IMG/VR virus record: IMGVR_UViG_3300045988_173968 | DNA: 64,000 nucleotides | Strand: one strand, 5' to 3' | DNA from: a virus | Shown here: one piece after another, positions 1,617 to 64,000 of the stretch | Layout of the letters: every line of letters starts with the position of its first letter | Position numbering within the stretch: the stretch's first letter is position 1 | Position numbers and translations under genes: made by a program | Notes under the pieces: generated by a model | What the model was told of the DNA's origin: nothing | Database searches by the model: none | Seen by the model: only the letters and a program-made list of their open reading frames with translations

Positions 1617-1814
1617 TCATATTGAATATGCCTGAGCCAACCATTTTTCGCAGGGAACTCTCTTTATCAATCTCTTACTTCCCACAAACAGGACGAAGTT
1701 GCAATTCGGTTCATTGGTTATTTCCCGCAGCTTGCATATCCCAATCCCAAAGTAAGCCGCGGCTTCTTCAAGGGTCAGGTTTGACTTCTCCTAAATTGGC
1801 ACTGTACAATTCAT
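1617..1814 (-). CDS. xis: Excisionase (Tn916 Xis-like HTH) with an in-frame TAG at codon 8
   Basis: MNCTVPI[TAG]EKSNLTLEEAAAYFGIGICKLREI...LIKRVPCEKWL resembles Tn916 Xis ([22 protein letters not shown]) as recalled. TAG at 1793-1791, TGA stop. Not in the ORF track because TAG splits it. Confidence 0.7.
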
Positions 1815-1815
1815 A

Positions 1816-2259
1816 TTACTTCCTCCCTGTCGATCCAAACCCACCTCGAGATTCTTTATTAAGTCTTGTACATTCCTCAAAATCAATCGCAGGTTGGTGC
1901 TTCATAATTCTGAACTGTGCAACTCTGTCATTCATCTCAATTCGGCAGTCTCTCGTTGCATAGACTGGCAGTTTCCACTCGTCCTCGTCTCCGCAATATG
2001 ATTCATCTACAACTCCAACGGAGTTGGTCTGAATGATTCCATAGTTGCGGAATGTAGAACTGCGGGGTGCAATGTGCGCTTCATAGCCTTCCGGCAACGC
2101 CATGGCTATACCCAGCGGAATGAGCCTAAAATCGCCCGCCTTCATCTCAACCGTTTCCGCAGAACGCAGGTCAATCCAATCGCTTTTGCCATCTATGTAT
2201 TTGAGGTCATCAATATCCTTTGATAAATACTTGATTTTAATTGTTACCTTGTCTTCCAT
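1816..2259 (-). CDS. dut: dUTP diphosphatase (dUTPase)
   Basis: Motifs AGDFRLIPLG, PRSS, GVVDESYCGD and the C-terminal RGGFGSTG. Start taken at MEDKV (2259), just after the nrdG stop. Confidence 0.85.
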   Translation of the reverse strand: MEDKVTIKIKYLSKDIDDLKYIDGKSDWIDLRSAETVEMKAGDFRLIPLGIAMALPEGYEAHIAPRSSTFRNYGIIQTNSVGVVDESYCGDEDEWKLPVYATRDCRIEMNDRVAQFRIMKHQPAIDFEECTRLNKESRGGFGSTGRK

Positions 2260-2264
2260 CTTTT

Positions 2265-2759
2265 TTAGCCTTCTTTCCATAATACTAACTTGTTCTCTCT
2301 TATCGACACTTTTACATCTATCACATTCTGATTGCTGGAACCTACCCAATGCTTATCCGGTGACTTGAGTTCGTCTATGTATTCTCCGTCCACCAGGACA
2401 TCGATATTCTCAATACCCGGTTTTCGCTTCACAGTATCCCAACTGGAACCAGTGTAAACCCAAATGTTCTTGTTCGGGAATGCTTTTTTAACGGCATCAA
2501 TGAGACGCATTGTATCCCAAATATTTGCAAGGGACAGAGGGTCGCCGCCAGTCAATGTAATACCAGAACACCAGTCTTGCGATAGCGTATCACATATCAT
2601 GTTCTATTCTTTCTCTCCAAACTCTGAGCCGACATTAGCGTCCCATGTTTCCGGATTGAAACAATTTTTGCAATGATGTTCACAGCCGGAGACCCAGATC
2701 ACACATCTGAGCCCCGAGCCGTTATTCATGTTGCAGTTGTCAATCTTGATGTAATTCAT
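2265..2759 (-). CDS. nrdG: Anaerobic ribonucleotide reductase activating protein (radical SAM), read through one in-frame TAG
   Basis: The N-terminal segment carries CEHHCKNC (CxxxCxxC). TAG at 2606-2604 is in the same frame as track ORF 2265-2600 (GITLTGGDPL). The ATG overlaps the nrdD stop (TAATG). Confidence 0.8.
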
Positions 2760-4888
2760 TACATTGACTTCCTTTCAGCGAACTCTGCCAACTTATGGTC
2801 AGCATACATCGTTCTTCCCTTAACTTTGCTGTAACCTAAATATCCATTCATTCTTTCTATTCGTGTAATATTCGTGCTGCCACACTTGGGACATTCATCT
2901 TTGTCAATAAAGGAAGCTCCACAGTCTTCACAATAATCGAGTTGCATATTGATACCCTCGTAGAAACCCATCTTCATAGCTCGTCTGATGAGAGTTTTCA
3001 TTGCCTCCGTGTTGTAGTCGGTTGTATATCTGCAATACTGAATATTACCACCATTACAAAGATGGAACATTGGATATTCAATGTCTTGCTTTTGGATTGG
3101 GCTTATGTCTTCCCAAACTCCACAATGGAATGAGTTACTTGTGTATGGCCTATCAGAGACGCCTTTGATAATGCCATATTTTTTACGGAACTGTTCTATT
3201 TGGAGCCCGCAGAGACTTTCTGCAGGAGTACCGTACAAAGCATAGAGTATTCCATCTTCCTTTTTATATCTGTCGGCGTAAGTGTTAATGAATTTTAGTG
3301 TGTCAATTGCGAATGTATTATCCTCTGCAATGGATTTGCCACAGTACAATACACTGGCTTCATTCAGCGCTGTAATGCCAAAACTCATTGTCATCGGGCG
3401 CAGGAAGTCTTCACCAAGCTCCTGCTCTGGATCTAAACGACCGTTCAAGAATCCACCCTGACAAAAAGCCAGAGGATTGGTTCCTGCTTTCTTATGCGAC
3501 AGGTAACTGAATGTTCTCTTATGGATCGCTCTGCAAAGGTCGAGATAATAAGTGAGAACCTCGTAATAATCTTTGTTCTCCTGCTGAGCCTTTGCAACAA
3601 TCATTGGAAAGTGCAACGAGATTGCTCCCAAGTTGCAGCGTCCCTCATATACGGGTTTATCGTTCTCATCGGCGGGTTCCATACCGCCTCGTTCATACCA
3701 TGGACTTAAATTTGCCCGGCAACCCATTCTTGAAATAGTTACTCCATGTTTTTTATAGATGCTTGGAGCATACCCGTCGCCTGTACAACTGATGTAGTCA
3801 GGATACATGGCGGCTTTGCTACATTCGATTGCCTCATCAAACAGCCATTCGAGATCACCGCCTTCACCATGCAGGTTCTCATCATAGAAGAAACTCAGCT
3901 TAGGGAAAAGAACCGGGTGTTTGAAACCTGGCTTTCCCTGCCCGTCTCTTCTTACTGCCATACAGACTGATGAGAGCATTGTTTCAAATTTACTCGTTCC
4001 GAGTCCAAAAGAAATACTGGTAAAGGGATAATCTCCGCGGCTTGAAGCCACAGAATTGAATTTCATTTCCCAGCCTTGAAAACCCTGTTCAGCGTCTCTG
4101 GCCACCTTTCCAAACGCCCAGTTTTCAGCTGCCTTGCCGTCTTTGTGTGTGAGCGAAACATATTCATTGTAATATTTCTTGAAACTCATCTCGGCGTAAG
4201 GAGCGAGAAGCTTGTCGATCTCACTTATCGTAAACCCACCATACTGGCACGATGCTGCGTTCATTGCAATATCGCCTACAAGATCAAATGCCACATCAAG
4301 TGTTTTGGGCTCCTGGTAATCAAGGTTCCCCATGAAGAATCCGCCTTTGAGTACAGCTCCCATGTCAAAGAGGCAGCAATTGACACTATCCAGCCTGCTC
4401 CCTCTATCATGGATATAGATGTACCCTTCATTCATCGCCTGCCGTTCTTCGCTTGTAAGGAAAAACTTTTTATATAGTTCGCTATTCAGTTCGTTATACA
4501 CAATGGCTTTTTGGGTCGTCACCAATGCGGAATCAGCGTTGGCATTGCTTCTATCTCCTACGAAGCTAAGTGACAGTTTTTTGTTGTACACTCTATCAAG
4601 CATAGAAGCAAAAGAGGATTTGTTATCTCGATATTCTCTGTATGATTTAGCCACGGATGGGTTAACTGTATCAAGAGCACATTCTACTACATTGTGAACA
4701 ATGCTTACCGGCACCGGTTGCTCATACTCGGACATTCTTCGCTTCGCAAAAGCGACCACTTTGTCTTCTTCCTTATCGGTAAGGGTAACACAGACCCGCT
4801 CAGCACTCTTGCGAATTGCGTTCTTAATCTTTTGCGGTTCGAAATCTACAGTGTTACCGTTCTTCTTGAGCACAGAAAGCTTCTTCAT
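2759..4888 (-). CDS. nrdD: Anaerobic ribonucleoside-triphosphate reductase (class III)
   Basis: 709 aa. N-terminal ATP-cone (VLKKNGNTVDFEPQKI), a C-terminal Zn-ribbon (CEDCG...CPKCG) and the glycyl-radical motif RMNGYLGY. Confidence 0.9.
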   Translation of the reverse strand: MKKLSVLKKNGNTVDFEPQKIKNAIRKSAERVCVTLTDKEEDKVVAFAKRRMSEYEQPVPVSIVHNVVECALDTVNPSVAKSYREYRDNKSSFASMLDRVYNKKLSLSFVGDRSNANADSALVTTQKAIVYNELNSELYKKFFLTSEERQAMNEGYIYIHDRGSRLDSVNCCLFDMGAVLKGGFFMGNLDYQEPKTLDVAFDLVGDIAMNAASCQYGGFTISEIDKLLAPYAEMSFKKYYNEYVSLTHKDGKAAENWAFGKVARDAEQGFQGWEMKFNSVASSRGDYPFTSISFGLGTSKFETMLSSVCMAVRRDGQGKPGFKHPVLFPKLSFFYDENLHGEGGDLEWLFDEAIECSKAAMYPDYISCTGDGYAPSIYKKHGVTISRMGCRANLSPWYERGGMEPADENDKPVYEGRCNLGAISLHFPMIVAKAQQENKDYYEVLTYYLDLCRAIHKRTFSYLSHKKAGTNPLAFCQGGFLNGRLDPEQELGEDFLRPMTMSFGITALNEASVLYCGKSIAEDNTFAIDTLKFINTYADRYKKEDGILYALYGTPAESLCGLQIEQFRKKYGIIKGVSDRPYTSNSFHCGVWEDISPIQKQDIEYPMFHLCNGGNIQYCRYTTDYNTEAMKTLIRRAMKMGFYEGINMQLDYCEDCGASFIDKDECPKCGSTNITRIERMNGYLGYSKVKGRTMYADHKLAEFAERKSM

Positions 4889-5160: not shown

Positions 5161-5165
5161 GAATA

Positions 5166-6211: not shown

Positions 6212-6212
6212 A

Positions 6213-9200
6213 TCATTCAACCCTTTCGTACTTAATGAGATACCAATATCCGCTTTGATTCTTTTGGACATCAGAAGCGTATATAATGTCTCCCTTGCTG
6301 ATTTTGTTCTTGTTATATGTAGCTGTTCTGATTGTTAATCTCGCATTCTTCCCTGTTCCCATTGAACGAGTAAAGCAGGCATAGCCCCATACATCACCGG
6401 AAGTTTTAGACTTTAATGGCACCAAATCGGTTACTATCAGCTTCCGTCTGTCTTCCGGTACTCCTGTCTTAATGTCGATATATCCAAGTATATCGAGCTG
6501 GTTTTGCATTTTAACTTTAAGGTTAATTTCAGAGATATTGAGGCTTTTGATATAGTCCTCGCATTCATGGAGAATAGCTGTCATATCCGTAATTGTGTAG
6601 GTTTTCAGCTCTTCGTTTTTCGCATTACGATCTGTTGCATGTCTGGCAACGATATGCTCCAACTCTGAACCAGCAAGCTTATCTTTGCGGATCGTCTTCA
6701 TTGTTCCCTGTTTAAAGAAATCAAACATCCGCATTATCCGAGACAGCTCTGCGCTATTCCCGAATTGCTGGAAATAATCAATTTGGATAAGCGGTGTTAC
6801 TTTTGCTTCCTTGATAGATCTCTCATTGAGCCAGCTCAGCACATCAACGAAATATTTAAAATCATTTTTGCTACACTGATATAATTCACGAGCGAGTGTC
6901 TTGCCAAAGCCTTTGACCGATGTAAGCGACTTGGTTATGATGCGTTTCTCCACATCTGCAATGGGAGCCCTGTTATCTTGTCCGTATCTATATGGCAAGA
7001 ACTTAATACCGAAGTATTCCTCAGCCTCTCTCTTAGCGTCTTGAGCCCTGTCTTTGTCGCCCTTTTCTTCCATCTGGTTTATGAAAACCTCGTAGAACTC
7101 AACCGGATGATGAGCTTTGAGCCAAGCGCCGTACAAGCTATCCAATGACACACAATAGGAGTGAGAGTTCGATGTAACGATGCCGGTTGCCGTGACAAAA
7201 TTGTGTGCCGGGTCTGACATTTCAACATCGTATGTAAGTTCTTCGCCCAACTTTTCAATAGTGGCAATCTTTTTGAGTAACGGCTGCGGGGATGCTTTAT
7301 CAATTTTGATTTGATAAACCATTTCGGGTGACATCCAGTAAAGCTCATCGCCAACAGATAATTCGTAGAGCTGCTTGTCGCCGCTTGGTGTCGGGAACTT
7401 GTGATTACCCGTACATTTAATGAACATGCCGTGACCATTTTCGAGCGTCACCTTATAAACTGGTTGTTTTCCTGCTGGACGAATGTCAACAATTTTGTTC
7501 TTCGCCAGCCCAGCTTTCCCAAAAGAGTAGCCGTATCCATAACCACGCCGAGCATATTCCATGTGGAGCGGATGTTCCTGGTCATGCATGGCTTTGTACA
7601 TTGTCTCTACGGTTTCCATGCGAGAGTCATACTTCATAATGAATGTGTCACCGGATACACAAGCGTTGAATGAATAACGGCTGGAGTCTTCGATAATTGT
7701 CCACAGGTCGCCCGCCAGCTTCTCTGCTTCTTTTCCTGGCTTCTTTTCGTCCCGAATGATCGCCGCCGCAAAGCCAGAGATGAATTTGTCTTTATATGAT
7801 AAGACCTTTTCTACTCTCTTTTTTGCTATATTTTTGATTGCCGTGTAACACTCCGACATAGGAATTCCTGCGTAATGTAGTGCTGCCATTTCCATCTCCT
7901 GATACAGGACGAAGCTGTTTGGCATTTCCTCTGTCTGGATTAGTTCGTCGAAAGATTTGACCCCGTACTTAAACGGCTGGCGGCTTTCGAATGTCTTGTA
8001 CATGCTTGCAAATCCAGGTCTTATTGCTGCCACAAATGCGCAAAGCTCCGAAATGTTGGTCGGGTGATACTTCGCAACGCGAGCTGTTGTGCCTGTTTTT
8101 TCGACCTGATTGATACCGATAGTTGCACCCTTGGCGTAAACATCCCATGCCGGATCATTCGGAGGACACATTTCTAAGAGCTCCGTTACGCTCGGAGGCT
8201 CCATTCCTATTCTGTCGAAGACCTTATACATCAGGTCTACAACCTTTACTGTAAGTAAATCATTCTTAAGAAAGTGATATTCTTCTGCCCAATGGCCGTC
8301 CATCAGGCAACAGAGATTGTCCTTGATCCTCACCAAGCCAATCTCCTCTCGAATACTTCCTTGATACAGGAGGTAGGAGCAAGGTGCAATACTCCAGCTT
8401 GATATCAAGCCTCGAAAATCATTGCTCTTATCGAATACCTCCCAATATTGTTTGTCGATGTATTTATGTACATCAATGTCTTCTTTTTCATCTTCATCTG
8501 CGTGTTTAAGAGCAGTTTCATATCTCTTTATCTGCTCAGACACTTCGTTGGCAAGCTCAAACGGGACACCCTGTGATTTTGCGTACAGTTTCCATGCGGC
8601 AGATGCCTTTGCTGTGCCGTATGCAATCATCGGATACGCATGGTCATCACCAAGAACCTGTTTTTGAGCCAAGGCAAATGGCTCCTGATTGTCTACATTA
8701 AAGTCAATATCGGGCAGAGATCCACTCTGCAATATTCTTTCTGTAGACATAAATCGTTCTGGGTACATCTTGACTGTAGCCGCAATGCGGTCTACTTCCG
8801 TAAAGCCAAGAAGCATATTCGTAACAAAGCTAACTGCACTGCCACGACCACTTTTCGTCAAATGACCGCCGTTTTTCTTGCCTTGCTTAATTACTTCGTG
8901 GTTAATGATAAAGTAGTCCGCCGTCTTAGTGTCAATTACGGTTTGAACTTCCTTTGCAATTTCATCAATGTAATGTTTCCGCTTTTCTGGAGGAATGCCT
9001 TTCGAATAAGCCTTAAATCCGTTCCTAATGAGCTGCTTATAGATTTCATCTCGTTCCTCTTGAGGTTTATCCAAATACAGAGACGGCATCTTGATATCTT
9101 TGTTGAATATCGGCGAGTCATACTCCTCAACTTGCAAAAACACATTCGTGTTCTCAATTGCTTCTCTTATCTCGCCGTCAGACAACACACACTGTTCTGC

Positions 9201-9917
9201 AAACCGTCGGTACGCTTCATCACCACCAGGATAGTCAAGATACCACCCTTCTTCTTGCGGATAAGTAAGACCTTTTGAAACAAGATAGTCTGTCCGGTCT
9301 TGCGCCTGTTTAGGATAGATATAATGACTATCACATCCCATGATAAGTGGTATCCCACTTTCTCTATGGATACGGATGATTCTTTTGTTCAGTTCCCGCT
9401 GCGACTCCGTATTGTGGTACTGAACCTCCAAATAGAAGTTGCGCCTAAAATGTCCGAACAATGCAGCAACAAAATTCTCGACATCTTCGTAATCCCAAAA
9501 CTTAATGCAAGCAGAAGTCACCCACACATCATCGGGTGGCAAAGAGAGAATCAGTTCTTTATCTAATCTTGCCTGTCCGTAGAAGCCTGTATCATTCGCT
9601 TCGGACATGACATTATTTAACGCTCTACGACCTTTCTCGTTCTTTGCTCCGATGAATATATGGCAGTTAGTACGGTCTTTCTCAAATCTGTCGTTGACCT
9701 AATAGGCTTCAACCGATTCAAGGAATTTGAGACCATATTTTTTAGCCACCTCGTAAGCCTCGATGTATCTCCCTTGGTATCCGTGTTCACACGAGGACAG
9801 AATGCCGTGGCCAAGCTCCACCGCTCTTTTGGCATAGTCCTCGTAGTTTACGGTACTATCGGAGATCCGAGGGTTTGTAAACCAAGAATGTTTGTGATAA
9901 TTCTGATAAACAAACAA
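6213..9917 (-). CDS. dnaE: DNA polymerase III alpha (DnaE-like) with N-terminal PHP domain, one in-frame TAG and a mini-intein
   Basis: Track ORFs 9699-9917 (PHP: NYHKHS...SCEHGY) and 6213-9608 are in one frame joined by TAG 9701-9699 (..SVEAY[TAG]VNDRF..). Shows IRPGFASMY and the FN/SHS motif split by the intein. TTG start. Confidence 0.85.
7167..7661 (-). other. Mini-intein (about 165 aa) inserted in the DnaE YSFN|SHS motif
   Basis: Starts CVSGDTFI (block A), has CTGNHKF (block B TxxH), and ends HNFVTATGIVTSN|S (blocks F/G). The flanks rejoin to SFNA-SHSYC. Confidence 0.7.
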
Positions 9918-9930
9918 TCATATGACCTCC

Positions 9931-11868
9931 TCACTTTCCGAATATCTCTTCTTCCGTATCAACAACTGGATACGGCACATGGTCTATGTATTCTGTAGTA
10001 TCCCAAGCGTAATTGTGCTCAAACTCTTCCGGCTTCGTAAAGAACCGCCGAGACGGCACATCGTAATATAAACCGCACTCGAGATTTGCTCGACCTCTTA
10101 AGCGGTCTTTCTGAACGCTAACGACCACATCGTATGGGCATGATGGCTTAACCCACCCGTCACCCTTTGCGTTTGGAATACCAGCCTTTTCTTTCTTTCC
10201 TATTCGTCTAAGGCTAATAGCTCTGTGCGCCAAATTGATTAAATTTGCCGTACCACTCAACTCATACAAGCCCACATTTTCCGTAAGGTCTTGCATCTTT
10301 CTCGGATGGCAAACCAATATAGTACAAACATTATATTTCATGCTAAATTGAATTAGCCAGTTGACGAGTTCGGTTTGTTTCTGCCACTTGTTGTCGTCGT
10401 TTGCACCGAGGTCAATAGTCGTCATGTTGTCAAGTAGAAACAGCTTGCTGCCGTACTTACGAACCGAATCTATCATCGAATCTTGTATCGATTTTACATC
10501 GTTGCTCCAATCGTCTTTATACAGCATGAGCTTTCCGCGATAGAAGTCGGATATTTTCTTCTTTGCCTCCGGCTTAACTCGGTAGTATGTAGCACCTTCT
10601 GGGCTAACATATTCCACGAGGTGGCGTCTCCCAGCCAATAGGTACATAAGCCAGTTGCGGCTCATCCACGCCGGCAGTTCCTTTGAATACACCCAGCAGT
10701 TTTTCTCTTGGTCGAGTGCTTGACAAATTAACTGGTAAAGAAAGGAAGTTTTGCCGGAGCCAGGTGTCCCTGAAATAATAGTAAAGCTTCCATAGAACAG
10801 CCTCATCAATTCTTTGTCCAAAGCATCAATGCCAAACCGAATGCCATCTATATCTGTTAGATCAACATCTTCTACATCAGCAAAATCGACGAGCGATGGA
10901 ACTGGGCTATCCTGAGCGTTGACAATAGCTTCTAAGACCTTATCTTTGCCGAAGAAGTAAAGCATCTCATTTATATCTTTTACGGAGTGTTTTTTGCCTT
11001 CTTCATCTTCGTAATATTCTGGGATATTGACAATCTTGCATCTCCAACTACCCAAACGAGGCACTACTTCTTTGACAAATTTTAAACCTGATTCATCGTT
11101 GTCGTGAGCAATAATGATTTCTTTGAACTGCTCCAACCAATCCTAGCATTCCGGAATCCAATGAGTGTTTCCGTCGCCGAGAGGAATTGAAACGGCATTG
11201 ATAAACCCCGCCTCAACCGCTGCAGCACAATCAAGCTCTCCACTTGTAATAAGCAACGGCTGATCGACATTGATGCGGTTCATATTAAACAATATTGGAG
11301 TTGTGTCCGCACCTTGTTGGCACCAGTTCTTATTTTCACCGTGTACTATTTTTCTCGTCGGACGGTATTTAACCATCGTAAGAGTATCGTTAAGGTCGTA
11401 GTAGTTAAATGCGATGTTTCCTTTAGAATCTTGGCGAATATCAAGATAGTCTACGGTTTCTTTGCTGATTTTTCGTTTTGCCAAATAAGCATACACAGCA
11501 TCCTTTACCTCGTTCTGCTCTGGTTTTGGATAGTTATACGACCGTTTTGTTCGAACGCCTAATTCGCCAAACCCGTAAGCTACGCCGGCAAGCTCAAACA
11601 ATTTTTGAACCGCTTGCATATATGTAAGACCCTGATGCATGAAAGCATCAATAACATCATAGTTTCTCCCGCAAGCTCCAAAGCAATGGCAGCTGTTTGT
11701 TTTAGATGAAAATATAAAGGATGGCGTATTCTCCGCATGGATTGGGCAACAGCAACGCTTATGCACCGAATCGAAATCCTTAACCCCAAAGCCATCCATA
11801 ATCAATTCAAAATTTCTGTCTCCAAGCTTTTCTTTTGCCTTTTCAATCAGTTCTCTCGGTACATTCAA
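9931..11868 (-). CDS. Bifunctional primase-helicase (Zn-finger primase, Toprim, P-loop helicase), read through one TAG
   Basis: CCCPIHAENTPSF..CHCFGACG zinc finger. The Toprim domain is split by TAG 11145-11143 (..HWIPEC[TAG]DWLEQF..AHDNDESG). Walker A GTPGSGKTS and Walker B LFLLDN. Confidence 0.8.
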
Positions 11869-12731
11869 TCATCACTCACCTCGTCTTTTGCTGCGTATGG
11901 GCAGTTTTTCGAAAATCCACAAAGGTTTTTGCAGTAAAACTCGTCTCGTTCCGCAGGATATTCCTCACAGTCACGAATATTTTTTACCGTAGTCCTTACC
12001 CAACTTTCTGCTTCCTCGTATGCGTCTTTATCAAATGGGAGCTCTACTGTTTTCTGTTTCCTAAACATTCCAAAGCAAAGCTTATCCGGGTATTTACCGT
12101 ATGTATTCTTGATGTTCCTTGCATAGAGATAAAGCTGTCTAGCGTATTTCTTCAGCTCTTCTTTATCCTTAAATTTTGCTTTACTCTTCCAATCCTAAAC
12201 TGTAATCTCTCCGGTGTTTTTGTCCTCAAGAATCAAGTCAATAAAGCCCTTGATGCGGAAGTCATCAAAATCATCCGTAAACTCATGCTCGGCATCAATG
12301 ATTTTCATGTTCTTAAAGCCGTCAAAATTCTCAAAGAAGCGAACACCATCGTTGAAGTATGACTCTTTCAGATCCACATATGCATTCCATGGGAAATCCT
12401 TAGTGATCTCTTTTTCAAATCTCTCTTTGAAAGAATCAACAAGCTCCCACTCAGCGAGATCACCCCGCTCATACTCTTCAAGGATTCCATGAACCATTGT
12501 GCCATATTGCGAGAATGCATTTTCCTCATTCACATATTTTGTAAAGAACGGGCAGTGTGTTCTCTCAATTGGAGACGACAACGGATCAAAGTCTGCCAAC
12601 GCATGCTCACAACACTGTTCTTCCCTATTAAAGGAGGAACACGCCTCACAACACTTGATGTAGTTGAGCAGATATCCATACTTGCATCCATTAAATGAGG
12701 ACAATTTTGAAAATGAATAGTTTTCTTTCAA
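11865..12731 (-). CDS. PD-(D/E)XK (Cas4/RecB-like) nuclease with a C-terminal Cys cluster, read through one TAG
   Basis: Track ORFs 12195-12731 and 11865-12068 share a frame. TAG 12197-12195 sits inside the motif GFIDLILEDK..ITV[TAG]DWKS. C-terminal CKNLCGFSKNCPY. Confidence 0.7.
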
Positions 12732-17022: not shown

Positions 17023-17100
17023 TGGCACGGGCCCCCGGACTCGAACCGGAATTGCATGGATTTAGAGGCCAGCATGTTTACCAATTACTTGCAGACCCGC
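17023..17100 (-). tRNA. Candidate amber-suppressor tRNA (anticodon CUA) with a non-canonical anticodon stem
   Basis: 7-bp acceptor stem (two G-U pairs), discriminator G plus encoded CCA, T-arm TCCGG-TTCGAGT-CCGGG, and a canonical 7-nt loop CU-CUA-AA. Only 3 Watson-Crick pairs in the anticodon stem and a weak D stem. Confidence 0.55.
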
Positions 17101-17122: not shown

Positions 17123-17212
17123 TCAAAACAGCCAAAACCTTGCGAACACCGCAAAGTAAACAACTATCGTAATTGCGCCAGAGATCAGCGCAATCTTTAC
17201 ATGTTCGTTCAT
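17123..17212 (-). CDS. Small hydrophobic peptide (29 aa)
   Basis: MNEHVKIALISGAITIVVYFAVFARFWLF. ATGA overlap with the upstream gene. Confidence 0.3.
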   Translation of the reverse strand: MNEHVKIALISGAITIVVYFAVFARFWLF

Positions 17213-17493
17213 AAAATACACTCCTTTACTATTCTTTTATATCTTTCTGGATCTGACCTCTCCAGTTCAGCAAACGAAATCATATTGTCTTCTTTTTCAG
17301 GCTTGTACCTACCGGAGGCATCAAAAAAAGAGCCACTTATCCTTGCGGTAAAGTGACCCTCGACTTCATCATAAAAGATCTCTGCGTCCGGGAATCTTCC
17401 TTTTAAAATATATGCGAACTAATAGCAATTTCCAGCGAACCAGTGTTCGTCTGGTCTGAACCTCCGGCGAATAAATTCTTCTACCATAACCAT
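17209..17493 (-). CDS. Hypothetical protein read through one TAG
   Basis: MVMVEEFIRRRFRPDEHWFAGNCY[TAG]FAYILKGRFPDAEIFYDEVEGHF.. TAG at 17421-17419. RBS AGGAAG. TGA stop. Confidence 0.5.
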
Positions 17494-17515
17494 TCCTTTC
17501 TTCCTAGATGAGGCA

Positions 17516-18463
17516 CTATTTTGCCTCGTCTGGATAAAATGTTCTGATGTAGTTTGCGTAGTCGTATTTGGCGTATTTTCTTTTAGCCCATGCTCTTTTG
17601 TAATCCATTGAATCCCAATTTTGCTTGGAAGCAAAAATATTATAGCTGAGAATACCTGTCTCGTCTTCAATCTGCTTCGTTTCCCAGCATATCCCAGATA
17701 AATTGAGTGCGTTTGCAGATAGTTCAAAGCCTGTTTTTGATACACGTTTCCATACGGAGTTCATAAAATTCTTGAACTTTTCCTTATCTAGCGTATTCCA
17801 TGTTCTAATAAGCATTCCATTATCACATCTTTTTTGGGAGTTACAAACTTCTCCTTCTTTTCTATAAATATTGAAAAATTTTGCGTCCCTTGTTTTCAAA
17901 ACAAACGGAATTATACTCGGAGGAATTATGTGTGTCTCGCCGCCAGCAGTTAAGCTATTTTCTCCAACATCCTGAATCTTAATATTTAGAATATCATCCG
18001 TTGAAAATCCTTCGAAATATAGCCAAAGGATAGTTGCATATTGACACTCTGGCGTGCCCATGTGAATCGTAGGAAACCATTCAATGAACTTTCTTGAAAG
18101 TTCATAAGGTGATTTTACAAGCATTTTCCCTACATCTTTTTCATACAGTCGAAGCACCACGGCATCGCTACTTATAATGGATTTCTCTATATAACCTTTA
18201 CTTGTGCCATAAGCAAAATATTTCAACAGCGCTTTGTTTATTTCGCTTTGATATTGCGCCAAAACAGGTATTTTTTTATTCGCTTCCAGCAATTCATTTG
18301 TGGTAAAGAAAATAAGATCCTTGCCAAGCTGCTCTTCCGATGGGAAGAACTTTTTCAGCAATATTTCGCTTTTTTTAGCCTCTTTCGTATTAAGAGATGA
18401 ATAGAATTCCTGTTTTAACTCCATTTTGCTAATCCTCCTTGAGATTATGTAAGAGTATAGCAT
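17516..18463 (-). CDS. Hypothetical protein (315 aa), one of only three ORFs ending at TAG
   Basis: Track ORF. Ends at TAG 17518-17516. Read-through would add about 49 codons and overlap the next gene. Confidence 0.55.
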   Translation of the reverse strand: MLYSYIISRRISKMELKQEFYSSLNTKEAKKSEILLKKFFPSEEQLGKDLIFFTTNELLEANKKIPVLAQYQSEINKALLKYFAYGTSKGYIEKSIISSDAVVLRLYEKDVGKMLVKSPYELSRKFIEWFPTIHMGTPECQYATILWLYFEGFSTDDILNIKIQDVGENSLTAGGETHIIPPSIIPFVLKTRDAKFFNIYRKEGEVCNSQKRCDNGMLIRTWNTLDKEKFKNFMNSVWKRVSKTGFELSANALNLSGICWETKQIEDETGILSYNIFASKQNWDSMDYKRAWAKRKYAKYDYANYIRTFYPDEAK

Positions 18464-18511
18464 AAATTTGAGTTAAACTCAACTTATCTCCACTAAACAC
18501 TTTGCTTTCTC

Positions 18512-18895
18512 CTATACGGCAATTAAATCTTCTAAATTGAGAAACGAAATAGAGCTTGATGCCAATGTGTTTGCTTTAGCGATCTCTCTCATGTATTTAC
18601 CTGGTAATGAAGTAATATATTTCCCAAGCTTGTTTTTAGGGAAAGAGATGGGGTTTTCGCAAAGAGCTATGCTATCTCTTGGGAGCCCAGTCTCTCCTTT
18701 AGGTAAGAGAACATGAGTTGGCATTTTTGACTTTTTCAAAGCGGTTGTCAGTGGAATAAGAACAACATTCGGACTAAACTTATTTCCAAGGTCATTTTGC
18801 AAAACTATATGTGGTCTATTTCCCCCTTGTACTGTCCCATTGGTTTGTATATCCGCGAAAAAAACATCGCCAATTTTGATATTATCCTTTTCCAT
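18512..18895 (-). CDS. MazF/PemK-family toxin-like endoribonuclease with no obvious antitoxin
   Basis: GDVFFADI..GGNRPHIVLQND..VVLIPLTT matches the PemK/MazF fold pattern. Ends at TAG (18514-18512), and a TGA follows 11 codons later. Confidence 0.65.
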   Translation of the reverse strand: MEKDNIKIGDVFFADIQTNGTVQGGNRPHIVLQNDLGNKFSPNVVLIPLTTALKKSKMPTHVLLPKGETGLPRDSIALCENPISFPKNKLGKYITSLPGKYMREIAKANTLASSSISFLNLEDLIAV

Positions 18896-52326: not shown

Positions 52327-52598
52327 TAGCCCATATTTTTTGCATTCTAACTGCAAAATTTGCAAACTGGTTGCAAAAAATTTTTAGAAAACCGCTTGAT
52401 CAATAGGCTTTACGGTACCTGTCCCTTAAAAGGAAATTATAAAGGCTAACAGTTTAACGAAAAATGGGCAAGGGTACATACGCAGGAAGAGGACGCTACC
52501 ATACCACTTGCCCCCAAGCCCCCATTGTATGTGCATGGTGGATACTGTACGCCAATGGAGGACAGTCATTATTATCTTTCGAGGACATATGTTTGTCC

Positions 52599-53846
52599 AT
52601 GAAATACACTTTTGGAAAGAAGGAATGTTTATTGAAGACAGTAAAAGTCTGCGACTCTATCATGGGCTCAGGCAAGACGAGTGCAGCGATACGGATGATG
52701 AACGAGGAAAGGGATAAGAGATTCATCTTTATTACTCCGTTCCTTGCTGAAGCTGACCGCATCGCAGAGGAATGCGAAAGCAGAGGTTTTACGGTTCCTG
52801 TTAAGGTTAAGGGCAGGAAACAGGAATGTCTGCACCAACTGTTGCGGGAAAAGAGGAATGTGTCCACCACTCACGCACTGTTTCTGGACAGTACGGAGGA
52901 GACTATCCGGTTAATTGAAGAAGGCGGATACACATTAGTTCTCGACGAGGTACTTGAACTGTTCGAGAGCAAGGACATCTCGGAGGACGATGTGAACCTG
53001 TTGCAGATTGGCGGAGTAATTGAGATTAAGGAGAACGGTTCTGTTGTCTGGCTAAACGAAGAGTATGATGGTGTGTTTGCGGACTATAAGGAGATGGCAC
53101 TGACTGGCGAACTTTATTACATCAATGATCGGCTGATGTTTTACTCCTATCCTGCTGATGTACTTAAGGCGTTTGAGGAAGTGTATGTGCTAACTTACAT
53201 GTTCGCCGCCCAGACACAAAGATACTACTTTGACATGCGCGGTATTGGTTATGAGTACATCGGAACAAAGAAGCTGCCGGACGGGGGGTACATTTTCACC
53301 GAACGGGCGGAGGTACCTGAGTACGCTAGACACCTTAAGGAAAAGATACATATTGTGGACAGTGAGAAGATGAACAGTGTAGGTAATGGGAAGTATGCCT
53401 TGTCTATGAGATAGTTCCAAGAGAGAGCCGAGCCGGAAGCCGTCGAGCAGATTAAAAAGAACCTACTAAATTATTTTCAAGCAATTAGTGGTTCCAAGGC
53501 ATCTGACCGCTTGTGGGCAACATACAACGTTTCCAAGGATAAGTTGCAGGGGCGTTATGGTCAAAGCTTTCTCTCCTTCAACTCTCGTGCGACAAATAGC
53601 TACAGAGACAAGACCTGTCTGGCGTATCTAGTAAATGTATTTATGAATCCATTTGAGTACAACTTCTTTACGGCGCAGGGCGTCCAGCCAGACCAAGATG
53701 GGTATGCACTGTCTGTTATGGCTCAGTGGATCTGGCGGTCGGCTATCCGCGAGGGCAAAGACATTGAGATTTACATACCGTCCAAGCGAATGCGAGACCT
53801 GTTGATTGCATGGTGCGATAGACTGGAGAAGGGAGAGATGCGGTAA
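52599..53846 (+). CDS. P-loop NTPase (helicase- or ATPase-like) read through one TAG
   Basis: Walker A IMGSGKTS and Walker B TLVLDEV. TAG at 53412-53414 joins track ORFs 52464-53414 and 53511-53846 in one frame. Start uncertain. Confidence 0.55.
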
Positions 53847-53847
53847 T

Positions 53848-55324: not shown

Positions 55325-55342
55325 GAAAGGACTACATAAATT

Positions 55343-55603
55343 ATGAAGTACCGAAAGCTCCCTGTTGTAATCGAAGCATTTAAGCTCGGATCTCAGCCAA
55401 CTCCCCCATGGTTCCTTAACGCTGTACGGGATGGTCGCGTACAGATGCACTACGATGAGAAATTGTGGTGTGAGGTAAATACGCTGGAAGGTATTATGAC
55501 AGCTTCCCAGTGTGAAGACTACATAGTGCAAGGCATAGACGGCGAACTCTATCCTTGCAAAGCAAACATATTTGAGAAAACATATGAGGAGGTCGTTGAA
55601 TGA
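55343..55603 (+). CDS. PGDYG-like domain phage protein
   Basis: [28 protein letters not shown] matches the recalled pattern. Confidence 0.45.
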
Positions 55604-56103
55604 GTGTAGTTTGTGCGAGAAAGTATGAAGATAAAATAATTATGGCTGCTGACTCGATTCTTTGCCAAGGCGATATGAAACGCACAAAAGGGGATGTCGT
55701 AAAGCTTCGCTCTATCAATGGAATGGGGATTGGCGGATGTGGGATGGCGCAGGAGATTAGCCTTATGTTTCGGTTTGCTGATACTCACCTCCCATCTTCC
55801 GCTACAGAAGCTGGAATGCAGGATTTTATCGTTGAGTTTTCCAAATAGAAGCATGGTTACGATGGAGATTATAGTGTCGAAAATGTATATCTGATTACAT
55901 ACAAGGGCCATTTATTCTGTGTTGAAGATTTTCTCGTTTATGAGGTGAAAGAATACGAAGCTATCGGAGCCGGAATGTATTACGGTTTGACTGCTTTGTA
56001 TCTTGGACACACGCCAAGAGAAGCCGTAAAAGTATCGTGTGACCTGTGCTGCTATGTGGCAGAGCCAATTATTGAGGTAGAGTTCCCGAGAGAGGAGGAA
56101 TGA
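55600..56103 (+). CDS. Hypothetical protein (possible Ntn-hydrolase or proteasome-like fold) read through one TAG
   Basis: Track ORF 55600-55848 continues in frame after TAG 55846-55848 (..EFSK[TAG][18 protein letters not shown]..) to a TGA at 56101. Confidence 0.45.
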
Positions 56104-56205: not shown

Positions 56206-59013
56206 GTGAGCTTAACTGACCAGATAAATATCTATGCCGTAGATTCTGACGCATTCTACAACGAGGAAGAACGGGATATCAGTATTCAGCTCAATAATCT
56301 GCGCACCAGAAAGAAGAATTTGAAAGAGGAGTTACGAATTGCTGAGCAGTTTCTGGGTGGTTCCCTTCCGGAGAAGTCATAGGCTACCCGATATCGTGAG
56401 ATATACCGGTTGCGTAAGGAAATTGAGATTGACCCGCCTACACAGGATGTGGTTGAGATTCTCAATGAGCAAATTGCTACCTTGACCCCTATTATCACGG
56501 GGCTCAAAAACGAGCTTAAGGATAAACTGGAGAGCCATTCCGGAATTCGCGCCCTTGACCCTCGTGCGCTCTCCCCTAAAAATGTTATATCGGTGTTTGA
56601 ATCCGCCATGACAAGAGTGTTTGGCTTCGAGAAGGATCAGTTATACGATGATGTAATTGTTGTTCGGGCGTATTACTACGAGGTGCTGAAAGACATCATG
56701 CGGGATGGATTTCTTCACAATGGTGAGCGGTATGTGGTGTTTACGGCATCCGCAGGACAGATCCGAACCAAAAGAACCGTCTTTGTTAAGGAATCTCTGC
56801 TTGAGAAGCATCGTCTGACACTCATGTGTGGGCTTACGGTTGACCATATCAATGAGCTGGGCGGTGTCAATGTCAATAAGTATCTGGCTTATTTGGCTTT
56901 GAGTAACTCTGCCACTGATATTTGGGAAGGGTTCGATATTGATAAGTCCATCGTTGTAGAAGACTTTGAGACGCTCGTAAATGGCACCGTAGACTACATT
57001 GATGGTACTACATATGAAATCACTCGCAAGGAAATGGGCGTTCCCATAACGCACACAGATGGCTGTGGAATGATGCTGCCGAGCATCAGTTGGAAGAACA
57101 TGATGGTGCGGCTCCCATGGGTAAAGGGATTGCTCGCCTCTTTCGACTTCAAGAAGTTCATTCGAGAGGCTAATGAGAGAGAACCGGAGATAAACCATGG
57201 TCTCGTCAGAGATATCTACGGCAAAGAATGGGATATTCTGCGAGACGATATCCGTTGTATTTTCACTAAGAGTCAGTTCAAAATGTAGAAATATTACGAC
57301 AATTGGCAGGATTATGTCGATAAATTTAAACATTATGGGTGTCTGGCGTGTAAGTGCAACGAAGAAGAGAGCTTCATCCCCAACGCCAAACTGAACTACC
57401 AGATGTTGCAGACTCTGACCGATATATCAGATGAGGAGTTGCGGGCTCTCGCTGAAAAGTCAGTCAAAAAGCTGGACAACATTGCAGCGGATAAGGATAC
57501 CATGCTCCGAGTATTTGGTGTTAAGGACAGCAACCGAGAGAAGAATCACTTTCAGAAATGTGTCGGTATCTATAATGAACTTCTCTGCCAGGAGTATTCC
57601 AAGGAAACCTTAAAACAGATAAAAAAGAGCCTCGTCAATGACTATCGGGCGGGAAAATTTGATGTTGATGGCAAATATCTGTTTATTATTCCGGATCTGT
57701 ACGCATTTTGCGAGCATCTGTTCCTTGGCATTGAAGTGCCGCAGGGGCTGCTTAAGGACGGTGAAGTGTCGGCAAGAGTGTTCGCCAAGCGGGAGAAGCT
57801 GGATTGCCTGCGGAGTCCACACCTCTACCGCGAGCATGGTGTTCGCCGTAATGTGGTCAACGAGGATACGAAGAAGTGGTTCCGTACTGATGCTCTTTAT
57901 ACAAGCTCTTATGATTTAATTAGCAAATTATTGCAATTCGATTGCGACGGAGATAAGAGCTTAGTGGTCGCTGACGAACTATTTGTCAGCATAGCAGAAC
58001 GAAACATGCATGGTATTGTCCCCCTCTATTACGAGATGGCGAAGGCGGGACAGATGCATATTGACAATATGAAGATCTACGATGGTTTGCAGGCTGCCTA
58101 CAGCGGTGGCAATATCGGTGAGATCAGCAATACTATTACGAAGATTTGGAACAGTGGCGAAATGACGCAGGATAAACTTGATGTGATTAAGTGGTTATGC
58201 TTCGAGAATAATGCAACAATTGATTACGCAAAAACATTGTAGAAGCCCATCCGCCCACATTATGTTGATAAAGCCATTAAATCCTGCGCCAACTATAAGC
58301 CACCCCAATTCTTTATTTACGCTAAAGATAAAACCCAGGAACAAGTAGAACCACGCAATGACAGCATCGTCAACAAGTTGTTTGACATTATCCCCGATAA
58401 GAGAATGCGTTTTACGGCTGCCAACCTCGGGAAGTTCGATTATAAGGTACTGATGCGAAATCCCATCGTTTCTATTGACCCTCGTGTCATTGAGAAATTC
58501 AAAGATCTTGACGCCAGAAAGAACTTGTCTTTGTCTTACGGTTCCAACGAGGAGAACTATGCATTCTTCCGTACAACCGTTAGATGTGAGCTGTATGCTA
58601 TTAACCCGAATGTGAACGCCGTCTGTGATATGCTTGTGGCTCACTTCTTCCGGGACAAGAAAAGTAAGAGCCTTAATACATTCTGGCTGTGCTATGGTGA
58701 CATAGTGTTCCAGAATATTCGAAACAACATCGAGAAAGATTACATACAGTGCAGTTGCTGCGGCAAACGGTTCTGGAGAACCTCTTATAAGAACCAGATT
58801 TGCGAGGCATGCATTGAGAAGATGTCTAATCCAAATCTGCCAAAACCAATTAGATACAAGGTAAAGGTCTGCATTGATTGTGGTAAAGAGTTCAAGACAG
58901 TTTCTACCGCAAGACGAGCTTGTCGTTGCACCGAGTGTAGCAAAATACGGAAGAGGAAAAATACAGCTAAGCGCGTATCACTCTTCCGGAGCAAAGAAAG
59001 TAACGCTTTATAA
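56206..59013 (+). CDS. YonO-like single-subunit two-barrel RNA polymerase (935 aa) read through three TAGs
   Basis: Three track ORFs (56410-57288, 57403-58242, 58378-59013) plus a 5' segment share one frame, joined by TAGs at 56380, 57286 and 58240. Metal-binding motif QFDCDGDK (DxDGD). C-terminal Zn ribbons. GTG start. Confidence 0.6.
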
Positions 59014-59688: not shown

Positions 59689-59699
59689 GGAGGTCTGGC

Positions 59700-61303: not shown

Positions 61304-61390
61304 ATGTCTGGTGAACTTGTATTAAAGGTGTACCCTACCTTAGTGGGAGCTAAAAAAGCGGTGTTGCTCAGCCGAAATTGGGCAGAGTGA

Positions 61391-61418
61391 GGGAGCGTCC
61401 GAAATGGCGCTCCCTTTT
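61391..61418 (+). terminator. Rho-independent terminator after the HU-like gene
   Basis: GGGAGCG-N10-CGCTCCC followed by TTTT. Confidence 0.65.
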
Positions 61419-61446
61419 CATATGAGCGATTAAGAGGAGTGATTAA

Positions 61447-62574
61447 ATGACCGCACCTACAAAGAGGAGCCTTAAGCCAGCGATTGGTGCGGCTAAGGAA
61501 CCTGCTTTTGAAAAGCGAAATGAAAAGTACGAATGTGTTTGCTGCCACGAAGAAAAGAAGCCTACTGATTTCTACAAATCCCCTACTGCGGCGTTTTGGG
61601 ACTACCCCGGCAGCATTACACTTGTGTGCAAGCAATGCGTCCGTAAGCAGTTTGATCGTGATGTGGATCAATACGGTCTTGACAATGCAATTATGTTTAC
61701 CTGCTATCGTCTTGACCAGCCATATATCAAGTCAACTGCAGAGGATGTTAAGGTCAACACAAACCCGTTTGATATTGGTGTTTACCTTGGCTCTGTTTCT
61801 CGTGCTGCCTATACCGGCAAATCTTTCGCGTGGTCTCTCCTTTCCGGAGAAATTAACCGTGACGATGACAATAGTGTCAAGGAAGAGAGAGAAGATAAAT
61901 GGTCTAAGCGAGACCGCCAGAATATGAACTATGTCATATCGATTATTGGGTATGACCCGTTTGATGACGCTGGCCTTAGTAATATGGACAGAAAGTATTG
62001 CTACAATGTCCTTTCATCTTACCTTAATACACCTTATATTACGGACGATTCTCACAAGATGCAGTCCGTTATCCAGCTTACCAATACATTGTTGCAGGTT
62101 CGCAAGATTGACGAAGCAATCAACAGAGAGCAGCTGAAGGCAAACACTAATACCGATACTCTCACCAATATGGTCATGGCGAGAAAGAACCTGCAGACCA
62201 TTGTAAATGCCATTGTAAAAGACAACAATATTGCCTCGCAGTATTCCAAGGAAAAGACCGGCGGGGAAAATACCTTGACCGGCAAGATGCGGGAGCTAAC
62301 CAATAATGGCTATGAAGCAATGAAGGTTAATCTATTTGATATTAAAACCTCTGAGGCTATGAAGCAAATCGCTGATCTTAGTAACTCGAGCATCATGGAA
62401 CAGCTCTCTCTAGATGCCAACGACTATACCGAAATGCTGAAAGAGCAACGCACCATGCTGACTGACCTGCGAGAAAAGGCGGATGCGCTTGAGGAGGAAA
62501 ATAGACAGCTCAAGAATAATCTTGAAAATCTGATTTCGGAATCATCAGCTAAGAGAAAGCGTGGTGGTTCATAA
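61447..62574 (+). CDS. Hypothetical protein immediately upstream of the large terminase (possible small terminase)
   Basis: Position, TAATG coupling to terL, an N-terminal Zn-ribbon (CVCC..CKQC) and a C-terminal coiled coil. Confidence 0.4.
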   Translation: MTAPTKRSLKPAIGAAKEPAFEKRNEKYECVCCHEEKKPTDFYKSPTAAFWDYPGSITLVCKQCVRKQFDRDVDQYGLDNAIMFTCYRLDQPYIKSTAEDVKVNTNPFDIGVYLGSVSRAAYTGKSFAWSLLSGEINRDDDNSVKEEREDKWSKRDRQNMNYVISIIGYDPFDDAGLSNMDRKYCYNVLSSYLNTPYITDDSHKMQSVIQLTNTLLQVRKIDEAINREQLKANTNTDTLTNMVMARKNLQTIVNAIVKDNNIASQYSKEKTGGENTLTGKMRELTNNGYEAMKVNLFDIKTSEAMKQIADLSNSSIMEQLSLDANDYTEMLKEQRTMLTDLREKADALEEENRQLKNNLENLISESSAKRKRGGS

Positions 62575-64000
62575 TGGAAATTTATGTGCCAACTACACCA
62601 TCCGAATGGTCTCAGCGCAAGGTCGAGGAATATGAAAAGGCGGCAAAAGTAATCAATTAGGGGCGAGAAAACCCTGTTCGCTTTGCGGAGGAAGTGTTCG
62701 GCATTGCCATGATCGACTATCAGAAGTGGTCTTTCATGGAGAGCTGGTGGCGGCCATATGTTCTTTGGCTCTGTAGCCGTTCAGCCGGTAAGACAACCGA
62801 GGCTGCAATCTTCTTGCAAACGAAGTGCTTCCTTATACCGAACTATACGGTCTGGATCTTTACAAACAGCGCCGGTCAGTCTATTGAGTGCTTCAAGAAA
62901 ATCGAGGATATCGCCTTGCAGAAGATTCCTTCATTTAGAACCTGTACGGACATCTTCGCTTCCGAAATCGAGAGAAACTCCAATTCCCCTACTGGGTTTA
63001 TTCATGACCCTGCGGGTCATCACTTCTCTCTGTTTAATAATTCTGGTGTGACTACCCTGTCTTCAAACCTTAACGCCATTCGTGGTAAGCGTGGTTCTAT
63101 ATTCTACGACGAGACTGGTTGGATGGGCAAAGAAGAATTTGCAACCACTGAACCATTCGCTTCACAGGACGCGAGTTGGGGTATCGGCGTCTCTAAAGGC
63201 CCTAAGTATTACGAGCCGCAGGCGATGCCTTTGCAGAGACTGTACGCTAGTTCCGCAAGTGATGTGACATATCCGTTTTACGAGAAGTATCGTGATTTCT
63301 CTAAGAAAATGATTCTTGGGCATCCTGACTACTTCGTTTGCGATATCAACGCTAACACTATTTTAGATTTCTCTACTCTTAATGGCGAACAGATCCCTTC
63401 TCACTTACAGCGAGAAGAAATCATCCGAAAGATGGACGAAGACCCGGATATGGCAGAGCGCGAATACTTCAACAAATTCTCAAAAGGCGGCGCTCAAAAC
63501 AGTGTTGTCCGTATGGAGACAATGATCCGGAACTCTTTTGTTTATCCTCCGGTTATGTGCAACGATACTGGTAAGCGTAAATTCATCTTTACATATGACC
63601 CTGCTCGCAACTTCGATGGAAGTGTCCTTTCTATTTTTGAGCTTATTGAGGACGAAAAAGTTGGATTGAAGTTGCGGTATGTGCGGTGTATTTCCTTTGT
63701 CGATACAGAAACGCGCAAGAAAACTCCATTGCCGATGAACGAGCAGGTCAAAATAATCAAAAAACTGCTCGTTGATTACAACGGGCCGAACGCTGCTGAC
63801 TGGGAAAATATCGAGGTTTATATCGATGCCGGTGCCGGTGGTGGCGGTATCTCTGCCGTGGCTGATAACCTTATGGAGGATTGGGAAGACAGTTCCGGGC
63901 AGGTGCATCGTGGCATGGTTGATCCGGAACATAAACAGTATGAGACTTCCAGGGCAAATTATCCTAATGCTCTTCCCTGCATTCATCTGATTGAACCTGC
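62574..64000 (+). CDS. terL: Terminase large subunit (3' end outside the window) read through one TAG
   Basis: Walker A CSRSAGKTT, Walker B SIFYDETGW, and a nuclease region YIDAGAGGGG. TAG at 62658-62660 (..AKVIN[TAG]GRENPVRF..). Absent from the ORF track because it is split and open-ended. Confidence 0.75.

Follow-up and report, generated by a model that had tools for sequence, protein, structure and literature searches.

Among phages with a genetic code unlike that of their host, only two stop-codon reassignments have been reported, TAG to glutamine (Gln) and TGA to tryptophan (Trp) (Borges et al., preprint 10.1101/2021.08.26.457843). Papers on the prediction of recoding equate TAG recoding with translation table 15, the standard phage code in which TAG is Gln. 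Peters et al. in 2022 reportedly also assigned Gln to TAG in TAG-recoded gut phages. Phrase searches of the literature for UAG or TAG assigned to Trp returned Balanophoraceae plastids only; these searches covered few subscription journals, so an earlier mention is possible. No TAG-to-Trp case was found in the literature on Codetta with phage or in the zeta-crAss paper. Glutaminyl-tRNA synthetase (GlnRS) recognises U35 and G73, and for this reason the amber suppressor su7 of Escherichia coli, derived from tRNA-Trp, is charged largely with Gln by GlnRS; GatCAB relies on U1-A72 of tRNA-Gln. Here we have examined the use of TAG in a 64,000-nucleotide stretch of viral DNA (IMG/VR record IMGVR_UViG_3300045988_173968), referred to in its whole length as the window. 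We propose, with a probability of about 0.8, that TAG is read mainly as Trp in this phage, likely by a phage-encoded tRNA with anticodon CUA, tRNA(CUA), that is charged by the tryptophanyl-tRNA synthetase (TrpRS) of the host and competes with release factor 1 (RF1). A previous sequence-only reading of the window had doubted that Gln could be assumed at its TAG codons; that doubt was justified, and alignments and codon swaps together single out Trp as the best assignment.

The window contains at least 15 in-frame TAGs inside intact, selected genes, and homology spans the TAG positions. Read-through of TAG joins split open reading frames (ORFs) into full-length proteins, among them DNA polymerase III (Pol III) alpha of 1234 amino acids (aa), a primase-helicase of 645 aa, a PD-(D/E)XK nuclease of 288 aa, a DEAD-like ATPase of 460 aa, a YonO-like RNA polymerase of 935 aa with three TAGs and a phosphoesterase of 427 aa; terL is joined in the same way. 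The genes concerned are as follows.

1617..1814, minus strand: xis, Tn916-type excisionase; TAG at codon 8 (1791-1793)
2265..2759, minus strand: nrdG, activase of the anaerobic ribonucleotide reductase (Pfam Fer4_12, E = 4.5e-44); TAG at codon 52 (2604-2606)
2759..4888, minus strand: nrdD; codon 257 reads TGG in the window but TAG in relative G006
6213..9917, minus strand: DNA polymerase III alpha, carrying an intein-like insert; codon 73 (9699-9701) is TAG, and codon 932 reads TGG in the window but TAG in G004 and G005
9931..11868, minus strand: primase-helicase (Pfam); codon 242 (11143-11145) is TAG, and codon 392 reads TGG in the window but TAG in G004
11865..12731, minus strand: PD-(D/E)XK nuclease (Pfam PDDEXK_1); TAG at codon 179 (12195-12197)
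17209..17493, minus strand: small gene of 94 aa; TAG at 17419-17421
18479..18895, minus strand: MazF/PemK-like protein (Pfam PemK_toxin); TAG at codon 128 (18512-18514)
21092..21328, minus strand: small protein with the context MPENL[TAG]NS; TAG at 21206-21208
52464..53846, plus strand: P-loop/DEAD-like ATPase; TAG at codon 317 (53412-53414)
55600..56103, plus strand: HslV/Ntn-like protein of 167 aa; TAG at codon 83 (55846-55848)
56206..59013, plus strand: YonO-like single-subunit RNA polymerase (PF05183); TAG at codons 59, 361 and 679 (56380, 57286 and 58240); codon 342 reads TGG in the window but TAG in relative L328
59700..60983, plus strand: metallophosphoesterase with an N-terminal segment resembling a helix-turn-helix (HTH); TAG at codon 32 (59793-59795) in the context GLT[TAG]DEAAPLINKEW
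62574..64000, plus strand: terL, running off the window; TAG at codon 29 (62658-62660)

All seven peptide contexts that the sequence-only reading had quoted around TAG were found in their places. The close relatives used for comparison were five IMG/VR genomes with 91-99% DNA identity, one of which (G002; 106,237 bp) is rated complete. ORFs of the window were kept only if the variation among relatives was significantly concentrated at third codon positions, which left 36 ORFs and 11,398 compared codons; greedy ORF sets were dropped, as they produced many spurious TAG 'swaps' in wrong frames. The 36 validated ORFs hold 15 TAG codons, most of them fixed across all relatives (4-6 related genomes), with third-position-biased variation flanking the TAGs on either side. 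TAG is present in Pol III, primase, RNA polymerase and terL of every relative. When ORFs on the coding strands were called with the standard code at a minimum length of 90 aa, the 70 obtained had TAA as stop in 41 cases, TGA in 21 and TAG in 8, and six of the eight TAGs are read through. As a sense codon TAG is rare, and as a terminator it is nearly absent (at most 2 of the 70 ORFs). Its load amounts to ~15 codons in the window and ~20 in comparable genes of a complete relative, or ~9% of all Trp codons and ~0.1% of codons.

The residues aligned to TAG were collected from distant homologs, namely ~150 IMG/VR phage loci with 46-62% protein identity, seeded by RNA polymerase and primase alignments, supplemented with protein-database matches (xis, HslV-like), 401 genomes of the host's order (the small protein with the PENLQ motif) and PDB entries. 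No CUA tRNA and no in-frame TAG was found in the distant relatives. At xis codon 8, Trp is present in 100 of 115 homologs (Y6, H3, F3, C3, plus five TAGs printed as Q), and the Tn916 Xis structure (PDB 1Y6U) has Trp at this site, as the sequence-only reading had stated. The column of codon 83 in the HslV-like protein (136 representatives) holds W100, Y16, F12, seven others and no Q. Codon 32 of the phosphoesterase, compared earlier with the Trp that commonly opens an HTH, aligns with Trp in 33 of 35 distant relatives (N1, S1). For primase codon 242 the counts are W46/75, F16, Y6 and L6 among viral loci and W61/79, F17 and Y1 among database proteins, and at codon 392, which is TGG in the window, W77 and F2 among database proteins. 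Trp also occupies the TAG site in 8/8 distant relatives of the MazF-like protein (codon 128) and in 4/4 distant homologs of the small ORF at 17209-17493 (CCYWFCYIL). TerL codon 29, for which an aromatic or hydrophobic position had been anticipated, gave W7/10, Y2 and F1. In the ATPase column (codon 317) W15 and S18 were counted, the S rows having W one residue off, a gap-placement artefact. Codon 73 of Pol III had been expected to align with V, L or F; the hydrophobic part of that expectation held (L47, I4), and Trp was found in all nearest homologs and 13 times overall. The remaining RNA polymerase site, codon 59, is variable (A38). Sites that carry TAG only in relatives gave W13/13, W19/29 and W9/20.

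Over the 15 window TAG sites with homolog data, the leading residue is Trp at seven, Tyr at two and Gln at two, and at most of the TAG columns it is neither Gln nor the lack of any conserved residue that dominates. Log-odds against background were summed over the 15 sites, with each column capped at 20 effective rows, and ranged from +24.7 to +29.3 for W, -13.3 to -2.0 for Y, -21 to -10 for F and -26.9 to -11.0 for Q. The lead of Trp is thus >30 units over Tyr and 40 to 50 over Gln, and the same order of residues was obtained from 12 sites. TAG aligns chiefly with Trp or other aromatic residues.

Public proteins of this clade do show Q at the TAG sites, in the primase (P0122-P0128), RNA polymerase (P0002-P0004) and Xis (P0243-P0247). 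The contigs encoding them match the records only when TAG is translated as Q, and the residue therefore stems from translation with table 15.

A census of codon swaps was made among relatives of 81-99% DNA identity. TAG and TGG replace each other at about nine in-frame sites: nrdD 257, Pol III 932, primase 392, ATPase 317, RNA polymerase 679 and 342, xis 8, a structural gene of G002 and one N-terminal site. ATPase codon 317, for instance, is TAG in the window and G005 and TGG in G002, G003 and G004; RNA polymerase codon 679 is TGG in G003 and G004; and xis codon 8 is TGG in L333, a relative with 98% identity in Xis. With the window as reference, TGG takes the place of three of the 15 TAG codons in one relative or another, and CAG, CAA, TAT or TAC replaces none of them. 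Among Gln codons, CAA and CAG are exchanged in 39/306, and among Tyr codons TAT and TAC in 70/574, so the rate of exchange between TAG and TGG is typical of synonymous change. The commonest alternative to TGG is in fact TAG, with four events versus three for TTG. Exchange of TAG with CAG or CAA was seen at two doubtful sites only, the third codon of one ORF and, in another, a start region that is itself uncertain. One further site has TAT, TAG and TTT among the relatives, again indicating an aromatic residue.

Lineages with only 81-82% identity still have TAG at its sites in xis, in the RNA polymerase and in the HslV-like gene, a retention that hints at selection for TAG itself. A second lineage (L330-L332; ENA and Logan contigs) has TAG at the same xis codon, an Xis that is 82% identical, and the gene order nrdG, small ORF, dUTPase, xis.

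Several of the genes that contain TAG also vary by insertion. Pol III alpha carries an intein-like insert (CVSGDT...VTSNS), and relatives have an extra 0.5-0.9 kb at window position 8708/8709, while the primase of G002 comprises 974 aa versus 645 aa here. Self-splicing or homing elements thus appear to come and go in these replication genes. The RNA polymerase gene of L002, L004 and L328 is split by an insertion of 0.28-1 kb at the catalytic DxDGD motif (57942/57943 in the window); the database RNA polymerases of these split relatives end in ...LLQFDKQSQSN, and the window copy is uninterrupted.

Of the six or seven tRNAs that ARAGORN and Rfam gave for the window at default settings, none reads TAG. 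A candidate was obtained at a relaxed setting.

17023..17100, minus strand: candidate tRNA with anticodon CUA, 78 nt, found by ARAGORN only at -ps90, below the default threshold

It shows the G73 and weak 1-72 pair ascribed to it before. The acceptor stem has seven pairs including G1·U72 and U6·G67, followed by G73 and an encoded CCA, and there is a good T arm and a 5-nt variable loop. The candidate was compared with 27 class I host tRNAs over the acceptor stem, discriminator, anticodon arm and T arm (46 positions). The host tRNA-Trp came out closest, with U72, G3-G5:C68-C70, U6·G67, G73 and the stem core UGG/CCA in common and an anticodon loop of CUCCAAA versus CUCUAAA in the candidate. The host tRNA-Gln, which has U1-A72 and A73, ranked near the bottom with 18/46 and none of 15 acceptor-stem positions. 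The short variable loop and G73 of the candidate exclude a bacterial tRNA-Tyr; in the host, tRNA-Tyr combines A73 with a long variable arm. In a global alignment to ~240 tRNAs of related phages, Gln, Trp and Asn lay close together and no clear isotype emerged. Four relatives have the candidate without a single difference, although their overall similarity is too high for this to be informative. The complete 106-kb genome G002 contains no other CUA candidate, and according to a pattern search of IMG/VR the candidate is confined to this narrow clade.

Other RNAs lie nearby. Two RNAs that exceed their Rfam gathering scores, a skipping-rope RNA (43 bits) and a DUF3800-XI RNA (44.7 bits), occupy 16809-16945 on the minus strand; they adjoin the 3' side of the tRNA(CUA) candidate and lie 5' of a phage serine hydroxymethyltransferase gene. 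Inside the tRNA cluster, a RAGATH-36-like RNA is found at 43221-43362 on the minus strand (55.5 bits versus a gathering score of 70, E = 2e-9). A tRNA-like gene at 43561-43629, also on the minus strand (Rfam tRNA, 50.8 bits; GCUGG-GAG-CCAGU), was considered as a suppressor and rejected, its anticodon loop having only 3-4 nt in every relative. This gene is kept in all five relatives with small differences and, being unable to decode normally, may serve as a decoy, a primer or a processing signal.

The left end of the window points to the host cell.

1..63, minus strand: 5' end of host pncB, at the prophage-host junction; 99% identity with the pncB gene of the uncultured Ruminococcaceae bacterium UMGS979
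349-1539: integrase, without TAG

The succession of a pncB start, the integrase and a Tn916-type xis marks a prophage junction. The pncB identity was measured on the copy of a provirus relative, in a scan of the genome collection with the host pncB flank. A threefold repeat of AAAAAGTTGTCA at ~279-314, ahead of the integrase in the junction stretch 1-348, may represent the att region or arm-type sites. The window has a G+C content of 43.7%, and its genes are encoded by the minus strand over the first ~46 kb and by the plus strand beyond 52.4 kb. It is best explained as the left 64 kb of a ~106-kb temperate phage integrated beside pncB of an uncultured human-gut Ruminococcaceae bacterium. No match to INPHARED phages was obtained in a megablast search with the right arm of the window, and no relative was found when the genome collection was scanned with terL.

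The metagenome-assembled genome (MAG) of UMGS979 (G007), which is incomplete, was taken as the host. It uses the standard code and encodes both RF1 and RF2 (prfA, 512 bits; prfB, 530 bits), two class Ib synthetases of the size of tyrosyl-tRNA synthetase and TrpRS, and GatB (562 bits). No GlnRS gene (glnS) was found above the cut-off in this incomplete MAG, and in the host's family GlnRS was present in 16 of 61 sampled genomes. Neither a TrpRS nor a release factor was found in the complete phage relative. With GatB, without a detectable GlnRS, and with U1-A72 and A73 in its tRNA-Gln, the host makes charging with Gln less likely, and a tRNA-Trp-like CUA tRNA with G1·U72 would have no obvious route to Gln in a cell lacking GlnRS. 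The suggestion that G73 and a weak 1-72 pair suit either Trp or Gln identity is valid for a GlnRS of the E. coli type but probably less so for this host.

A number of observations weigh against an assignment to Trp. In the alignments, the rows of homologs are not independent of one another, and several columns favour other residues. Tyr dominates at RNA polymerase codons 679 (Y72/78, F6) and 361 (Y47/78, W21, H10) and is found at nrdD 257 in PDB homologs; it is also the commonest residue at Pol III codon 932 (Y39/53, W10), where the nearest homologs have W. Together with the site occupied by TAT, TAG and TTT, and the fact that TAG is one transversion away from TAY, these columns could mean that TAG is read as Tyr by a Tyr-accepting suppressor of the supF kind. 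We regard this as very unlikely, since Tyr is rare or absent at the strongest sites (xis 6/115, HslV-like 16/136, phosphoesterase 0/35, MazF-like 0/8), its summed log-odds fall >30 below those of Trp, and a single swap between TAG and TAY stands against ~nine between TAG and TGG despite 574 Tyr codons; the 5-nt variable loop and G73 of the phage tRNA also differ from the long variable arm and A73 of the host tRNA-Tyr. The Tyr residues of distant homologs at nrdD 257, Pol III 932 and RNA polymerase 679 rather suggest a path from TAY via TAG to TGG at positions where either aromatic residue is accepted.

Gln is the commonest residue at two TAG sites and has a share at a third. The small protein with MPENL[TAG]NS has Q10/11 and R1 in bacterial homologs from the host's order, and nrdG codon 52 has Q7/18, D3, E2, M2, I2, V1 and A1, the nrdG alignment from PDB being uninformative at this position. 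Both sites had been singled out earlier as Gln-like, a description that is borne out for the former but not for the latter, which is simply variable. The same applies to nuclease codon 179 (T29, C18, Q11/70, L4, V4, R3), previously taken to be usually hydrophobic. The TAG at 21206-21208 is moreover fixed in the window, G002, G004 and G005, and the C-terminal half of the protein stays conserved; either Trp is tolerated there or some Gln is inserted.

That TAG simply means Gln throughout, as in code 15, has published precedent in crAss-like and other TAG-recoded phages (Borges et al., preprint 10.1101/2021.08.26.457843) and would agree with the PENLQ and nrdG columns and with the two swaps to CAG/CAA. 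We nevertheless rate it lower still than a reading as Tyr. Genuine Q is absent from nine columns (xis, 115 rows; HslV-like, 136; phosphoesterase, 35; primase, 75; MazF-like, 8; terL, 10; ATPase, 33; RNA polymerase 361 and 679, 78 each) and its log-odds lie 40 to 50 below those of Trp; the CAG swaps are confined to a codon 3 and an uncertain start region, the Q residues in databases are artefacts of table 15, and the phage tRNA is unlike the host tRNA-Gln.

A TAG at the conserved Gln of PENLQ, with other TAGs at conserved Trp, also raises the possibility of ambiguous decoding, in which a suppressor tRNA of dual Trp/Gln identity, like su7 of E. coli, would yield a mixture of both residues at each TAG. 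U35, G73 and a weak G1·U72 pair are features used by GlnRS in E. coli, and with GlnRS in 16/61 genomes of the family some hosts of the phage clade may possess the enzyme. On the other hand, the matched host MAG has gatB and no glnS was found in it, its tRNA-Gln (U1-A72, A73) shares 0/15 acceptor positions with the phage tRNA, a clear demand for Gln exists at one site only, and exchange with CAG is limited to two doubtful N-terminal sites versus ~nine exchanges with TGG. Mixed decoding is in our view unlikely, albeit the most credible of the alternatives to a reading mainly as Trp.

The tRNA itself is a further difficulty. Mismatches disturb the D stem of the candidate and both ends of its anticodon stem, and the Rfam tRNA model scores it at 15.5 bits (E = 3.5) versus a gathering score of 29, a weak call. 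The lead of tRNA-Trp among host tRNAs is narrow (30/46, with tRNA-Gly at 29/46), and U35 removes a major identity element of bacterial TrpRS. One gene, moreover, appears to end at TAG.

17504..18463, minus strand: recombinase-like gene (MrpR_N_CB), ending in tandem TAGs at 17516-17518 and 17504-17506

Its TAG-N9-TAG stands right before the ribosome-binding site and ATG (17493) of the next gene, and read-through would add a 49-codon extension that overlaps this gene and looks non-coding. The tandem TAG seems to be a doubled terminator, as would be compatible with suppression that is partial or limited to the time of tRNA expression. Together with host RF1 it implies that decoding may be partial. 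Taken further, the weak tRNA call, RF1 and this gene end might suggest that TAG is not decoded at all, the genes being broken, split into two functional halves or rescued by bypass. This is extremely improbable: Pol III, primase, RNA polymerase and terL would then be interrupted in every relative, and neither the third-position-biased variation on both sides of the TAGs, nor the use of TAG as terminator in at most 2/70 ORFs, nor the highly non-random composition of the aligned columns would be accounted for.

A reading of TAG mainly as Trp could operate as follows. The phage tRNA(CUA) would be made in the lytic cycle and would derive from, or mimic, tRNA-Trp, with C35 changed to U and with G73, U72 and G3-G5 paired with C68-C70. 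Host TrpRS would charge it, and the charged tRNA would compete with host RF1 at TAG. The mischarging with Gln known for E. coli amber suppressors derived from tRNA-Trp would be absent, as the host presumably forms its Gln-tRNA via GatCAB and has no detectable GlnRS. In lysogeny, when the tRNA is not made, TAG would terminate translation, so that Xis, the replication enzymes, the phage RNA polymerase and TerL would not be completed, while the TAG-free integrase would be. New TAGs would arise from TGG by transition, or from TAY by transversion at Tyr sites tolerating Trp. The complete scenario, in which a temperate phage of a Clostridia host without GlnRS evolved TAG as Trp by means of a highly diverged tRNA-Trp-like suppressor that is charged by TrpRS despite U35, with TAG terminating in lysogeny, is tentative, and we give it slightly less than an even chance of being right in all its parts. 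If it is, the synthetase repertoire of the host would by extension set the residue delivered by a phage amber suppressor, Gln where GlnRS is present and Trp where it is not.

Should the assignment hold, TAG to Trp would be a new code for viruses and bacteria, one that current pipelines mistranslate, and the assigned amino acid would be linked to the set of aminoacyl-tRNA synthetases of the host. Recoding-aware gene callers use table 15, and the records of this clade consequently carry Gln at positions that are almost certainly Trp, including invariant Trp residues in Xis, primase and further proteins. The error spreads into alignments, structure predictions and metaproteomic search databases. 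A natural amber suppressor charged by TrpRS in Clostridia, if it is one, could also serve in genetic-code expansion.

The phage has counterparts among several known systems. It resembles the TAG-recoded gut phages assigned to table 15 (crAss-like, Lak, Garnet) in having a standard-code host, TAG in lytic-cycle genes and a TAG-free integrase, in avoiding TAG as a terminator and in encoding a tRNA(CUA) candidate; the proposal that lytic genes are gated by recoding is applicable to it too. It differs from them in that TAG aligns with Trp or aromatic residues instead of Gln, in the low TAG density of ~0.1% of codons, in the spread of TAGs across genes for excision, replication, transcription and packaging rather than a concentration in late genes, and in that no phage RF2 was found. 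With the TGA-to-Trp phages (table 4; Jade, Agate, zeta crAss-like) it would share the reading of a stop codon as Trp by a phage suppressor tRNA, with charging by host or phage TrpRS presumed. The codon here is TAG, however, so that the anticodon change lies at position 35 instead of 34, and no phage TrpRS or RF1 operon was found.

The origin proposed for the tRNA is in turn that of E. coli su7 (supU), an amber suppressor tRNA-Trp with anticodon CUA: a tRNA-Trp-like body with C35 changed to U (CUCUAAA versus CUCCAAA), G73 and a weak 1-72 pair. In contrast to su7, the evolutionary signal here is mostly for Trp and no GlnRS was found in the host, and the phage tRNA is far more diverged from tRNA-Trp (30/46) and has mismatches in its stems. 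The assignment of TAG to Trp as such is that of NCBI genetic code 32, from the plastids of Balanophoraceae. There, an extremely AT-rich organelle of a parasitic plant has been reassigned as a whole, whereas here a virus would impose the same reading transiently on a cell that keeps its RF1.

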